Origin: Clostridia bacterium
Lineage (GTDB): Bacteria > Bacillota > Clostridia > Oscillospirales > CAG-272
DNA length: 64,000 bases
Direction of reading: 5' to 3'
Assembly (NCBI GenBank): GCA_017623355.1
Contig: JAGAPG010000020.1
Location: 2,762 to 66,761, forward strand
Numbering within the stretch: position 1 is the stretch's first letter; each line of letters begins with the position of its first letter. Made by a program: the position numbers and the translations under genes. This document shows positions 1,284-4,793 of the stretch, piece by piece. The notes under the pieces are model-generated. The model ran no database searches, was not told the origin of the DNA, and saw only the letters and a list, made by a program, of their open reading frames with translations.

Positions 1284-2873
1284 ATGATTACTGCAAAAAA
1301 TCCGATACTTTCGGGCTTTCATCCCGATCCTTCGATACTTCGCGTTGGTGAGGATTATTTCGTTGCCACGTCGACATTTCAGTGGTTTCCCGGAGTTTCG
1401 CTTTACCATTCGCGCGATCTTGTGAATTGGGAAGCGTTGCCCTCGCCGCTTAGCCGTTCATCTCAGCTCGATATGCAGGGCGATCCGAATTCGGGCGGAG
1501 TTTGGGGACCGTGTCTTTCGTACTGTGACGGAACGTTTTATCTTATCTACACGAACACGAGAAATTTTCACGGTATTTTCAAGGACACTCCGAACTATCT
1601 CGTTACAACGACTGATATTTTCGGCGGTGAGTGGAGCGAGCCTATTTATCTTAATTCAAGCGGCTTTGATCCGTCGCTCTTTCACGATGATGACGGGCGC
1701 AAATATCTTCTCAATATGCGTTGGGATCACCGAATGGAGTTTCACGATTTTGCGGGGATTCTTATGCAGGAATATTCAGAGAAGGAAAAGAAGCTCGTCG
1801 GCGAGATAAAAACTATTTTCAAGGGAACGCCCATCGGCGCGACCGAGGCTCCGCATCTTTATAAAAAGAACGGATATTATTATCTTATGCTTGCCGAGGG
1901 CGGAACGATGTACAATCACGGAGTTCAGCTTGCGCGCTCAAAAAATCTTTGGGGGCCGTACGAGGCTGATCCGCTTTCGCTTCTTACGACGAGAAATGAT
2001 CCTTCAAGTCCGCTTCAGCGCACAGGTCACGCCTCGTATATTGAAACGCCTGACGGCGACGGATACGTTGCGTATCTTTGTGCAAGACCGATTGGGGAAA
2101 AGAAGCGTTCTATTCTCGGCAGAGAAACGGCTATTGCCAATGTCGAATGGCGCGACGGCTGGCTTCGCTTAAAGGACTCCGATACGTTGACTCCGCCGAC
2201 GGAGTATAAGGTTTTTCTTGAGGAGCATAAATATCCTTGCTCTGACATAAGAGATTATTTTGATTGCGATACGCTTCCGCATCATTATAAGACTCTGCGC
2301 TTACCTCTTGAAAGAATTGGCTCTCTTACGGAAAGGCGCGGATTTTTGCGTCTTTACGGACAGCAAGCGATAACCTCGTGTGACGTGCAGAGCCTTGTCG
2401 GCAGACGGCTTCAGCATTTTAAATCGCAAAGCACTACTTATCTTGAATTTGATCCGAAAACTTTTCAGCAGATGGCGGGTCTTACGGTATTTTACGATAC
2501 TTATAATTTCTTTTACCTTTATATGTCGCGCGATGAGGAAAGCGGGCAGAACGCGCTTCGCATAGTCGTTCGCGATAATCTTAAATTCTACAATCCGATA
2601 AACGGCTTTAAAATTCTTATTGGGGAAAGCAAATGCGTTTGGCTAAGAGTCAATATCGACAGCCTGTGCCTTTCGTTCTCGTATTCTCTTGACGGAGAGG
2701 AATTTTTCTCTATCGGCGGTGAGCTTGATTGCTCGGATCTTAGTGACGAGGCGTATGTCGATATCGGTCACGAGGGACATACGGGCACGTTCGTTGGTAT
2801 GGCTTGTCAGGATCTTACCGGTGAGCGAATCGGCGCGGATTTTAAGTTTTTTGAATACAAAAGCCTTGAATAA
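1284..2873 (+). CDS. GH43 beta-xylosidase/alpha-L-arabinofuranosidase (XynB-like)
   Basis: N-terminus NPILSGFHPDPSI..DYFVATSTFQWFPG, with EAPHLYK and a C-terminal beta-sandwich region. AAGGAGA RBS precedes the ATG. Confidence 0.9.
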   Translation: MITAKNPILSGFHPDPSILRVGEDYFVATSTFQWFPGVSLYHSRDLVNWEALPSPLSRSSQLDMQGDPNSGGVWGPCLSYCDGTFYLIYTNTRNFHGIFKDTPNYLVTTTDIFGGEWSEPIYLNSSGFDPSLFHDDDGRKYLLNMRWDHRMEFHDFAGILMQEYSEKEKKLVGEIKTIFKGTPIGATEAPHLYKKNGYYYLMLAEGGTMYNHGVQLARSKNLWGPYEADPLSLLTTRNDPSSPLQRTGHASYIETPDGDGYVAYLCARPIGEKKRSILGRETAIANVEWRDGWLRLKDSDTLTPPTEYKVFLEEHKYPCSDIRDYFDCDTLPHHYKTLRLPLERIGSLTERRGFLRLYGQQAITSCDVQSLVGRRLQHFKSQSTTYLEFDPKTFQQMAGLTVFYDTYNFFYLYMSRDEESGQNALRIVVRDNLKFYNPINGFKILIGESKCVWLRVNIDSLCLSFSYSLDGEEFFSIGGELDCSDLSDEAYVDIGHEGHTGTFVGMACQDLTGERIGADFKFFEYKSLE

Positions 2874-2888
2874 AATAAAAAGAGCAGA
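2835..2888 (+). repeat. direct repeat copy 1 (last codons of GH43 + stop + start of terminator)
   Basis: gcggattttaagttttttgaatacaaaagccttgaataaaataaaaagagcaga recurs at 3653-3706 with one substitution and one 1-nt indel. Confidence 0.9.
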
Positions 2889-2930
2889 CATACAAGAAAT
2901 TTTCTTCTTGCGTGTCTGCTCTTCGTTTTT
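2879..2930. terminator. bidirectional intrinsic terminator between GH43 and the RHH gene
   Basis: Stem agagcagaca (2881-2890) pairs with tgtctgctct (2913-2922). T-runs are present on both strands. Confidence 0.75.
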
Positions 2931-3111
2931 AATTTTGCGGAGGATAAGTTATTTCACCCTCGGATTTTTCAAAATCCTTTATTGCCTGTCTTATGAGAAA
3001 TAAAATTTCTCCATTCGCAGAGCGACCGTAATATTTTGAAATATAATGAAGCTTGTAATGAAGCTCGGGATCAATCTCTATTCCTAAATGCTTGTTTTCT
3101 TTATTTCTCAT
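2929..3111 (-). CDS. Arc/CopG-type ribbon-helix-helix DNA-binding protein (60 aa)
   Basis: The pattern LGIEIDPELHYKLHYISKYYGRSANGEILFLIRQAI matches the RHH strand-helix-helix pattern (xRLPxELHxKLKxxAxxxGRSxNxEI). ATG at 3111 follows GAGGTG. The track start at 3117 is GTG. Confidence 0.6.
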   Translation of the reverse strand: MRNKENKHLGIEIDPELHYKLHYISKYYGRSANGEILFLIRQAIKDFEKSEGEITYPPQN

Positions 3112-3126
3112 AAACACCTCTAAAAT

Positions 3127-3194
3127 CTTAATTTAAGTATATTTTAAGATTATTTTATGGTATAATGTTGTTGGTATACTTAAATTAAGTATAC
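3127..3194. promoter_or_regulatory. divergent promoter/operator region of the RHH-SLOG cassette
   Basis: Perfect 21-bp palindrome gtatacttaa-a-ttaagtatac at 3174-3194. A third half-site, cttaatttaagtata, lies at 3127-3141 and is the exact inverted repeat of 3175-3189. The extended -10 TGgTATAAT (3158-3166) sits between them. Confidence 0.7.
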
Positions 3195-3223
3195 TGAATT
3201 TTTGAATTTTAGGAGAGGGATTT

Positions 3224-3691
3224 ATGAATTGTACTTTTTTTGGACATCATGATGCACCGGAGCATATAAAACCAAAATTAAAAGAAACCATCTTGAATAT
3301 TTTTGACAGAGGAGTTAGCAGCTTTTATGTTGGAAATAACGGAAGATTTGATTTTTTAGTGCAGGAAGCGTTAAACGAATTAAATAAAAGCTATTCAATA
3401 AAATATAGCATCATTTTGTCTTATTTAAATGAAAAAGCAATAATCGGTAATCAAGAGAATACGTTATATCCGGAGGAATTAGAGGGTGTTTATCAACGTT
3501 TTGCAATTTCAAAACGAAATGAATGGCTTTTGAAAAAATCTTCAATCATAATTGCCTATGTGCAAAATTCCTTCTCTAATTCTTACAAGTGGATAGAAAA
3601 AGCAAGAAAAAAAGGCTTGATAATTATAAATTTAGCAAGCGCCGATCTAAGTGCGGATTTTAAGCTTTTTGAATACAAAAGCCTTGAATAA
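3224..3691 (+). CDS. SLOG/DUF1273 (YpsA-like) family protein with a C-terminal tail copied from GH43
   Basis: N-terminal CTFFGHHD..P..KLKETI, then GVSSFYVGNNGRFDFLVQEAL and a C-terminal KARKKGLIIINL, resembling DUF1273/SLOG proteins. The last 10 aa, ADFKLFEYKSLE-type, equal the GH43 C-terminus. Confidence 0.55.
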   Translation: MNCTFFGHHDAPEHIKPKLKETILNIFDRGVSSFYVGNNGRFDFLVQEALNELNKSYSIKYSIILSYLNEKAIIGNQENTLYPEELEGVYQRFAISKRNEWLLKKSSIIIAYVQNSFSNSYKWIEKARKKGLIIINLASADLSADFKLFEYKSLE

Positions 3692-3706
3692 AATAAAAGA
3701 GCAGAG
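3653..3706 (+). repeat. direct repeat copy 2 (3' end of SLOG ORF + terminator start)
   Basis: Near-identical to 2835-2888. Confidence 0.9.
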
Positions 3707-3720
3707 AAATCTGCTCTTTC
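3697..3720. terminator. hairpin terminator shared by the SLOG gene (+) and azlD (-)
   Basis: agagcag-agaaat-ctgctct. The minus-strand reading is followed by ttttatttt. Confidence 0.6.
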
Positions 3721-3765: not shown

Positions 3766-4065
3766 TCATAAAAAGAAAAGCATTGTGACAAGCACGCTGA
3801 CGATGACGGTTACGGCGGTTGGCATTCTTTTTATGCACGAGAGCACGATAGCTGCGAGCGCGCCGACAGCGCCGACATACCACCTTGACGCATCAACGCT
3901 CAGAACTCCGGGAAATATGAGCGCGCCGAGGGCGGTAAACGGAATAAGATTTAAAAACTTTTCAGCCTTAGGGCTTATTTTTATTTTGTCTGTTATAAAC
4001 GACGGTAAAAGGCGCACGCCGTAGGTAACGACCATCATACAAAGAGCGAGTAATATGTAATTCAT
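3766..4065 (-). CDS. azlD: branched-chain amino acid transport protein AzlD
   Basis: 99-aa hydrophobic protein. Its ATG at 4065 has a GGAGGAG RBS and an ATGA overlap with the azlC stop. The 219-aa track ORF is an upstream over-extension. Confidence 0.75.
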   Translation of the reverse strand: MNYILLALCMMVVTYGVRLLPSFITDKIKISPKAEKFLNLIPFTALGALIFPGVLSVDASRWYVGAVGALAAIVLSCIKRMPTAVTVIVSVLVTMLFFL

Positions 4066-4793
4066 ACGTTCTCCTCCTTTTTGGGCAGGGGAGTGTCTGA
4101 ATTTTGCGCCTCGGGGTCTTTTACGAACCACACTCCGAAAAGAGCGCACGCAATACAGGAAACGATTATAGCCCAGCTTGATTTCAAGCCTATCCACACA
4201 AGAATGCTGTTTACGATAGCGGTGAGGATGACGAGCAGAATAAGACGCAGATTTTTTCTTATTCCGGGAACGAGAATAGAAATAAAGAGTGCGTAAAGAG
4301 CAATTCCCAAAGCGTTTGAAATCTGCTCGGGTAAAATGTTGCTTGCAAGCGCGCCGATTACCGTTCCGCCAACCCACGAGCCGTAGGTAACGACGATAAC
4401 GCCGTACATAAACCAAGGCGTGCAATCCCTTTCGGACATTGTGGCGGTAAGCGCGAAGGATTCGTCCGTTACGCCGAACGAGCAGATAAGCTTTTCGCCG
4501 AGATTGGTTTTACCTATCTTTCTCATAATGCAGGTGCCCATTATGAAGTGTCTTAGGTTCACGATAAAGGTAGCGAAAACAACCTCAAAAAACGCAGAGC
4601 TGAGGGATATCAGCTCAAGCGCCATTATCTGTGAAGCTCCCGCGAAAACGAAAACGGACATAAGTATCGTTTCGCTCGTTGAGAAGCCTGTTTCGCCTGC
4701 TAAAACGGCAAAAGCCATAGCTACGGGAATGAAGCCGAACATAACGGGAACGGAGCGCCTCATTCCGAATAAAAACTGTTTTCTTCTTGTCAT
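4062..4793 (-). CDS. azlC: AzlC family branched-chain amino acid permease subunit
   Basis: 243-aa polytopic membrane protein with an AzlC-like N-terminus (GMRRSVPVMFGFIPVAMAFAVLA), followed by azlD. Confidence 0.8.
   Translation of the reverse strand: MTRRKQFLFGMRRSVPVMFGFIPVAMAFAVLAGETGFSTSETILMSVFVFAGASQIMALELISLSSAFFEVVFATFIVNLRHFIMGTCIMRKIGKTNLGEKLICSFGVTDESFALTATMSERDCTPWFMYGVIVVTYGSWVGGTVIGALASNILPEQISNALGIALYALFISILVPGIRKNLRLILLVILTAIVNSILVWIGLKSSWAIIVSCIACALFGVWFVKDPEAQNSDTPLPKKEENV

Follow-up and report, generated by a model that had tools for sequence, protein, structure and literature searches.

A foreign RHH–SLOG gene pair bracketed by a duplicated GH43 gene end in a Clostridia bacterium, and the cassette family to which it belongs

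We analyzed a 64,000-nt stretch of DNA (hereafter, the window) from a Clostridia bacterium (Oscillospirales, CAG-272; assembly GCA_017623355.1, contig JAGAPG010000020.1, positions 2,762–66,761 of the forward strand), in which two small divergent genes are located between the convergent host genes for a GH43 glycoside hydrolase and AzlD. The pair encodes a predicted ribbon–helix–helix (RHH) protein and a predicted YpsA-like protein of the SLOG fold, and is bracketed by direct repeats spanning the GH43 3′ end (Table 1). The GC content drops from 44–50% outside the repeats to 25–30% between the two copies, and the enclosed DNA is foreign. The GH43 gene was left intact with its native C-terminus: its product matched Pfam Glyco_hydro_43 (E = 2.6e-94) and GH43_C2 (E = 3.8e-55), the latter match reaching residue 526 of 529 and thus placing the tail inside the domain, and GH43 relatives end in ADFxxFEYK. 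Beyond azlD lie azlC (Pfam AzlC), rsmG, rluD, and lspA. The cassette and the several kb around it, which hold two open reading frames (ORFs) between the repeats and housekeeping neighbors, contained no recombinase gene, as a preliminary description of the locus had stated.

Table 1. Features of the RHH–SLOG locus (coordinates refer to the window)
Feature	Position	Strand	Remarks
GH43 glycoside hydrolase gene	1284–2873	+	529 aa; host gene with duplicated 3′ end
Left repeat copy	2835–2888	+	GH43 codons 518–529 (ADFKFFEYKSLE), stop codon 2871–2873, AAATAAAAA spacer, hairpin 5′ arm
Left nested hairpin	2880–2923		Outer stem AGAGCAGACA/TGTCTGCTCT, inner stem CAAGAA/TTCTTG
RHH gene	2929–3111	−	60 aa (MRNKENKHLGIEID...); length as given by gene callers, mechanical ORF begins at GTG 3117
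Divergent promoter/operator region (putative)	3112–3223		112-nt spacer between the RHH and SLOG genes
YpsA-like SLOG gene (predicted)	3224–3691	+	155 aa; own part 3224–3652; 3653–3691, 12 GH43-derived codons and stop codon
Right repeat copy	3653–3706	+	One T>C substitution (F>L); A-run shorter by one A
Right hairpin	3696–3719		AGAGCAGA-GAAA-TCTGCTCT; RNA fold −14.6 kcal/mol (+), −17.9 kcal/mol (−)
azlD	3766–4071	−	Convergent host neighbor of GH43; Pfam AzlD, E = 4e-14

A repeat search aligned 46 nt of the two copies (2835–2880 and 3653–3698) with one mismatch (98% identity). These were the only two copies in the window at up to three mismatches, and 100 shuffles yielded none. Past a 1-nt indel (five versus four A residues), the match extends through GAGCAGA to 2888 and 3705, bearing out the preliminary description, which had reported a 54-nt GH43 end at 2835–2888 repeated at 3653–3706. 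The coding part comprises 12 codons rather than the 10 given there, and the weaker similarity that it had noted over approximately seven further codons upstream amounted to 6 of 21 identical nucleotides by manual count, which is chance level. The right copy is in frame with the 155-aa ORF, to which it contributes ADFKLFEYKSLE and a stop codon.

Both copies run into hairpins, whose 3′ arms (TCTGCTCTT) also match (2915–2923 and 3710–3718); the loops are unlike, the left one being 26 nt long with an inner hairpin and the right one GAAA. The left hairpin folded as RNA at −26.5 kcal/mol on the plus strand (z = −6.1) and −27.5 kcal/mol on the minus strand (z = −8.0). It has a U-run on either strand and could plausibly terminate transcripts from both directions, namely those of GH43 (+) and the RHH gene (−). 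The right hairpin could plausibly terminate the SLOG ORF (+) and azlD (−), its U-run being better suited to azlD. A scan for consensus terminators missed both hairpins because their T-runs are interrupted. The composite left hairpin (2877–2923) was also observed at ≥88% identity on other contigs from runs X6–X8, between unrelated flanks (...CTAACAG and TCTGTT...) that would lengthen the stem, which suggests hairpins nested in the loops of other hairpins.

The preliminary description had identified the enclosed pair as an Arc-like RHH regulator diverging from a SLOG/YpsA-like protein, and profile and structural comparisons agreed with both assignments. For the 60-aa protein, a profile of 14 homologues run against the Protein Data Bank (PDB) hit the Mnt repressor (1MNT) at E = 0.0036 and Arc at E = 0.0055, in both cases through a GRSxN motif, and a single-sequence AlphaFold2 model (pLDDT 67) had an extended N-terminus and helices at residues 15–28 and 31–49. 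The Pfam Arc profile scored under its cut-off (E = 0.19) and would be insufficient alone; taken together, profile and model point to a probable Arc/Mnt-type RHH protein. The 112-nt spacer upstream of its gene was the best-conserved part among eight cassettes compared. It contains a 15-nt inverted repeat with 100% complementarity (3127–3141/3175–3189), a palindrome, GTATACTTAAATTAAGTATAC, at 3174–3194 that recurs exactly in cassettes of either cargo type described below, a putative extended −10 element of the SLOG gene, TGGTATAAT, at 3158–3166, and a Shine–Dalgarno sequence, AGGAG, at 3211–3215. We infer from this arrangement that the palindromes act as the RHH operator: an RHH dimer would bind there, overlapping both divergent promoters, and would repress the SLOG gene as well as its own. 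The region 3122–3195 was also present in runs X6–X8 with other flanks.

For the 155-aa protein, the Pfam YpsA match (PF06908, residues 5–110) was marginal at 28.2 bits versus a cut-off of 27.7, NCBIfam PRK13660 gave E = 0.0017, and a sequence search of the PDB returned no match. An AlphaFold2 model built from 51 homologues (pLDDT 93.6) had Bacillus subtilis YpsA (2NX2) as its top Foldseek match in the PDB (E = 2e-5, TMq 0.72, approximately 15% identity), followed by DprA, ShosA, LOG, and the N-terminal SLOG domains of TRPM. Residues G37, N38, G40, and D43 (VGNNGxFD) and an FGH motif after strand 1 were invariant among the homologues; the resulting GxxD spacing, compared by sequence alone, differs from the GxD/E of YpsA at the β2–α2 junction (PMC6459960). 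The protein is thus modeled as a distant YpsA-type SLOG-fold protein.

The homologues of this protein are 137–145 aa long and end in ...INLA. The protein end lay 0–6 residues past the conserved INL in 64 of 80 homologous genome loci, versus 18 residues past it in the window; therefore, the right cassette boundary was placed right where the SLOG ORF ends. The window ORF lost its own stop codon and took that of GH43, and the comparison with its homologues indicates that the tail is GH43-derived and not ancestral, contrary to the possibility that the SLOG gene had been fused to this tail from the beginning. The closest non-identical homologue (P0002, 62% identity; loci L350 and L351, where L numbers denote loci fetched from species genomes) has an RHH partner and lies between convergent oadA and nagB genes, with two different terminators and no duplication. 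Long tails in P0002, P0036, and P0045 were considered as further duplicated gene ends and rejected, these ORFs running into the flank or into the promoter of the next gene.

At least 10 independent contigs (ENA, Logan, and NCBI), which derive from various samples and assemblers, span both repeat copies and show the same layout. It was also found in a related lineage (95.5% identical) with its own substitutions in each repeat copy and a left hairpin that is 100% conserved. The idea that the repeat or the position of the cassette came from a collapsed or chimeric assembly, which the preliminary description had raised, could draw on three Logan contigs and one ENA contig that end inside the repeat; such breaks at a shared 31-mer are expected of a de Bruijn assembler at a true repeat, and given the spanning contigs and the lineage 4.5% diverged, we consider the probability of an artefact negligible.

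Between the window and the 95.5% lineage, the stretch from the left hairpin to the SLOG core (2881–3652) had 12 differences in 772 nt, versus 79 in 1200 nt of the near flanks, and the synonymous divergence (pS) was lower in the cassette (0.059) than in the genes next to it (0.187; p = 0.0004). Both lineages share the T/C difference that distinguishes the left copy from the right one. At position 2876/3694 the copies co-vary, both having T in the window and both having G in the other lineage. These patterns are compatible with conversion of one copy by the other, or with recombination through the 54-nt homology that exchanges the 818-bp unit. The homology-driven insertion proposed in the preliminary description is compatible with these data; it could explain how the unit is maintained and spreads within the species, and the first origin of the repeat stays unexplained by it.

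Relatives of the two genes define a family, for which counts were taken from species-representative genomes. The SLOG relatives (346 in species genomes) all came from uncultured gut Clostridia (Oscillospiraceae and Acutalibacteraceae), and RHH relatives were found in 371 species genomes, the best 80 with 80–93% protein identity; the RHH 90%-identity cluster contained 1719 distinct sequences. The commonest divergent partner in RHH loci was a 109-aa YAcAr/DprA-like SLOG protein (PF10686), followed by a YpsA-like protein in approximately 14 loci and an AbrB/MazE-like protein in two, and many YpsA-like genes were paired instead with an HTH_26 (helix–turn–helix) repressor. The RHH gene and its partner were divergent in all RHH cassettes examined.

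The flanks of approximately 50 cassettes fell into 93 unrelated groups out of 101, without a recurrent gene beside the cassettes, and the GC content of the cassettes was below that of their flanks. Three cassettes (L197, L200, and L232) from different species were 99.0–99.5% identical at the nucleotide level, with flanks at random-level identity; therefore, the family has been mobile recently and repeatedly. These three, together with L198 and L211, are RHH–YAcAr cassettes of approximately 0.65 kb, for which 700 nt of flank was compared on each side. The RHH–YAcAr element runs approximately 150 nt past the RHH stop codon to a hairpin, GCATTTGTG-NN-CACAAATGC, whose arms co-vary between loci; this left-end hairpin is conserved in the YAcAr subfamily and often directly follows a host terminator.

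The family was nearly absent from phage and plasmid collections. Among 2.9 million viral contigs, there were two distant SLOG matches and no RHH match, placing the cassettes outside prophages, and the only matches among plasmids were two megaplasmid-like records. No end motif was conserved across YpsA-type cassettes, in which conservation ends at the two stop codons, and these cassettes have neither shared ends nor the fixed-length target duplication that is a hallmark of insertion sequences (IS), miniature inverted-repeat transposable elements (MITEs), or palindrome-associated transposable elements (PATEs). A conserved boundary site of the integron or pdif type was not found, the flanking hairpins varying by locus and no dif/attC consensus scan having been made. 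A literature search on YAcAr/DUF2493 retrieved unrelated papers only.

Repeats beside other cassettes were detected by comparing the 100 nt after the SLOG stop codon with the 1.2 kb upstream (score ≥16). A flanking repeat was present in 15 of 66 YpsA-type cassettes versus 3 of 177 control windows, and in 4 of 48 RHH cassettes versus 1 of 236 controls. The repeated element was nearly always a terminator hairpin that differed from locus to locus, and the flanking repeats are not a uniform target-site duplication. Exactly two hairpin copies bracketed the cassette at ten other loci, and insertion between convergent genes, adjoining their terminators, recurs in the family. Duplicated coding sequence was seen at the window locus only, among the cassettes examined. 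The preliminary description had proposed a site-specific insertion that regenerates gene ends and had suggested looking for the same cassette at other gene ends; many cassettes were found, at unrelated sites and mostly without duplication, and a copied coding segment was absent from all the others examined, which does not support that proposal.

Several loci have unusual hairpin arrangements. L155 was considered as a clean target duplication, and this view was weakened by the presence of its hairpin four times in 8.4 kb, as in families of repetitive extragenic palindromic (REP) elements. The hairpin (AAAAAAGTGCTTTCACC-loop-GGTGAGAGCACTTTTT, with variable loops) follows four genes at positions 3663, 4432, 5764, and 7857 of L155 and is located at 3416 and 4583 of L251, forming a REP-like terminator family of Acutalibacteraceae metagenome-assembled genomes; L149 and L089 are alike with other hairpins. 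At L155 the hairpin is owned by the host, sister species having the leucyl-tRNA synthetase (LeuRS) gene and a homologous terminator with no cassette. The site after the LeuRS terminator in three sister species looks like a local hotspot of variable content, holding a 1.9-kb two-gene insert (L250, 3425–5318), an RHH–SLOG cassette (L155, 3696–4505), and other genes (L251), respectively. In another species, a contig end (L031, 6520–6750) holds a tandem duplication, with a 133-nt period and one mismatch, that covers the last 22 GH43 codons, the stop codon, and a REP-like hairpin (GACACCTTCCCC...GGGGAAGGCTT); this hairpin is also present in the flank of the L095 SLOG cassette. At L154 (1–1100), an HTH repressor gene and a SLOG pseudogene with an internal stop codon are bracketed by the two copies of an approximately 75-nt repeat that includes a terminator hairpin and is inverted, not direct.

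The explanation of the window locus that we slightly favor combines an acquired cassette, host-mediated insertion with target duplication, and a repressed SLOG effector. Ancestrally, one bidirectional terminator would have been common to the convergent GH43 (+) and azlD (−) genes. An AT-rich RHH–SLOG cassette of approximately 0.73 kb would have been horizontally acquired and inserted at this terminator, probably by host recombination or repair rather than by a cassette-encoded enzyme. The event would have duplicated the last 12 GH43 codons, the stop codon, the spacer, and the hairpin, presumably 54–90 nt in all. The left hairpin would then end the GH43 and RHH transcripts and the right hairpin the SLOG transcript while still serving azlD, so that all four transcripts would still terminate at a hairpin. 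Later, the 54-nt repeats may have allowed the 818-bp unit to be exchanged or lost by homologous recombination, and gene conversion between the copies could also have occurred. Any insertion that removed a gene end would be lost; therefore, the survival of duplicating events may reflect selection and not mechanism.

A number of observations weigh against this explanation. The unlike loops, next to 54 nt of 98% identity upstream, are not predicted by a simple one-step duplication. The window hairpin may have arrived with the cassette instead of from GH43: within 1.9 Mb of fetched loci, the stem GAGCAGA/TCTGCTC was confined to the flanks of the closest RHH cassettes, in four contexts other than this one. 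An association exclusive to the cassette is in turn weakened by the recurrence of the right-hairpin 22-mer after 5S rRNA, tRNA, and other genes on 18 unrelated metagenome contigs with no cassette nearby. Most cassettes of the family have no flanking repeat, the repeats that exist range from 16 to >100 nt, and some apparent duplications (L155, L149, and L089) are copies of REP-like terminator families. The low divergence of the cassette is only suggestive, since lspA is equally low (pS 0.069) and the difference at 4-fold sites is small (4/54; RHH gene 0/17, SLOG core 4/37), which weakens the view that the cassette is clearly younger than its flanks. A search of PADLOC-DB 2.0 found no match for either protein at E = 0.1 or better.

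An empty GH43 site, which the preliminary description had suggested seeking in relatives, was likewise not found. A metagenome pattern scan (GH43 tail, 60–90 nt, azlD-side flank) gave no match, Logan contigs (not raw reads) of four runs with diverged strains contained no joint skipping the cassette, and none of 80 GH43 loci from species genomes (relatives at ≤83% identity) had azlD downstream or a GAGCAGA terminator. A protein search revealed no GH43 lineage between 83% identity and the 90% cluster of the window itself, whose third member is a 1.9-kb contig ending at the repeat. Therefore, the pre-insertion state is reconstructed, not seen.

Other routes to the same structure have to be weighed against host-mediated insertion. 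The homology block ends exactly at the hairpin loop, where the loops differ, as would be expected of two recombining alleles, and this feature suits a Campbell-type event in which an 818-bp circle carrying the cassette, the GH43 tail, and the hairpin recombined with an empty chromosome through the 54-nt homology to produce two hybrid copies. Such an event would also accommodate the T/C difference common to both lineages alongside co-variation at 2876/3694, and a low-divergence block that has the repeats as its limits and takes in the left hairpin but not the right one. However, it needs a circle already bearing the GH43 tail, leaving the first event unexplained; 54 nt of homology is close to the minimum for RecA-type recombination, neither a circle junction nor an empty site was seen in the Logan contigs or the metagenome scan, and other family members lack a host gene fragment. 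We regard it as rather unlikely. An enzyme acting in trans, such as a REP-associated tyrosine transposase (RAYT), an IS200/IS605-type HUH transposase, or another hairpin-recognizing recombinase, could duplicate a hairpin by making staggered cuts at terminators. This would be in keeping with the frequent presence of one and the same hairpin, directly oriented, on both sides of a cassette, with the defined and co-varying left-end hairpin of the YAcAr subfamily, with 99%-identical copies at unrelated sites, and with the REP-like hairpin families of these genomes. Yet the flanking hairpins vary by locus without a family-wide end motif, the duplication ranges from 0 to >100 nt and is usually absent, no neighboring gene recurs, and the window repeat holds 39 nt of coding sequence for which a hairpin-specific enzyme would have no need, which makes this route improbable.

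Two ordinary steps could also have sufficed: a hairpin-flanked cassette would have landed after GH43, a unit of GH43 tail, hairpin, RHH gene, and truncated SLOG gene would then have been duplicated in tandem by an illegitimate event, and recombination between hairpin copies would have collapsed the array to the present partial duplication. The closest cassettes (L093 and L096) have the same hairpin at both ends and SLOG genes with their own stop codon, the 133-nt tandem GH43-end duplication in another species (L031) provides a precedent, and the scheme predicts a cassette-type loop on the left and another loop on the right, as observed. Still, it requires two rare events, no intermediate was found, and the collapse would have to be confined to an 18–22-nt hairpin; we consider it very improbable. 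At the level of the family, a broader and doubtful reading is that RHH–SLOG modules of 0.65–1 kb form an undescribed class of mobile cassettes that look autonomous yet have no recombinase and that are now spreading among gut Oscillospirales. They would insert next to or inside intrinsic terminator hairpins in a hairpin-dependent manner, by a HUH/RAYT-like enzyme in trans or by template switching at stalled forks, the GH43 duplication being a footprint of that process.

Returning to host-mediated insertion of a repressed SLOG module, the function of the pair can be considered from its known relatives. Overproduction of YpsA blocks cell division in B. subtilis (PMC6459960, PMC7376506), and the YpsA clade has been associated with conflict systems and with NAD/ADP-ribose chemistry (PMC6459960, PMC7376506, PMC9503650). 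Two SLOG families are found behind this one tightly conserved RHH repressor with its operator, or have an HTH repressor instead; therefore, the product apparently must be kept off, and tight repression would be explained if overproduction were harmful as with YpsA, since excess YpsA blocks division. The SLOG protein may thus bind nucleotides (NAD/ADP-ribose type) as an effector or sensor whose free expression would be harmful or costly, and the module would act as a selfish or defense-type cassette, akin to toxin–antitoxin loci. We consider this the most likely role, at about even odds.

Comparison with known systems revealed partial likenesses. YpsA (2NX2) is the best structural match, and the cassette homologues have invariant Gly and Asp residues at the β2–α2 junction, where YpsA has GxD/E; however, these homologues have 137–145 aa versus 178 and no synteny with gpsB, and the cassette gene is AT-rich, has a divergent RHH or HTH repressor, and occupies a different site in almost every species. 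Type II toxin–antitoxin systems with an RHH antitoxin (ParD/CcdA/RelB) are likewise small, AT-rich, two-gene modules that spread horizontally to varied sites without a recombinase of their own, with an RHH autoregulator and palindromic operators, and autoregulation is predicted for the cassette. Because the RHH and SLOG genes diverge, the locus does not form a classical type II operon. Only approximately 10 residues of the RHH protein lie outside the DNA-binding fold, which is probably not enough to bind a toxin, and SLOG proteins are not established toxins. ShosTA (DprA-like ShosA with the phosphoribosyltransferase ShosT) and Thoeris ThsA also place a SLOG/DprA-like fold in a compact defense or toxin–antitoxin-type system, whereas the cassette has no phosphoribosyltransferase, TIR, or other effector partner.

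With respect to the insertion, integrase-borne islands at gene 3′ ends similarly have direct repeats (attL/attR) that hold the target 3′ end and leave the target gene intact, but the cassette has no integrase, is only 0.8 kb long, occupies differing sites across the family, and has relatives without host gene ends. Phage morons, integron cassettes, pdif modules, and PATEs/MITEs resemble it as lower-GC transcription units that are terminator-bounded, intergenic, recombinase-less, and sometimes bracketed by hairpins. The cassettes are not in prophages, and they lack a conserved site of the attC or dif kind, as well as inverted repeats at their termini and a target duplication of fixed length. 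The family probably represents undescribed, actively spreading, recombinase-less two-gene cassettes.

The window locus shows a foreign gene wedged between convergent genes with neither damaged, the incoming ORF borrowing a host stop codon together with 12 host codons. Across the family, a tiny module that encodes no mobility function has been transferred very recently and frequently, the same unexplained behavior that has long been noted for toxin–antitoxin loci. With defined cassette ends and many sister genomes, the insertion mechanism could be worked out from paired filled and empty sites, and the family provides a tractable experimental handle on stand-alone SLOG (YpsA/YAcAr) proteins.

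A search of the whole window against Rfam gave no match at the gathering score and only sub-threshold noise at the RHH–SLOG locus. The intergenic region upstream of GH43 (940–1283) contains direct repeats of 54 nt at 1026/1184 (83% identity) and 43 nt at 951/1067 (86%), as well as a 16-nt inverted repeat (926–941/1032–1047), with no Rfam match. A comparable repetitive stretch lies at the equivalent place upstream of GH43 in L008.

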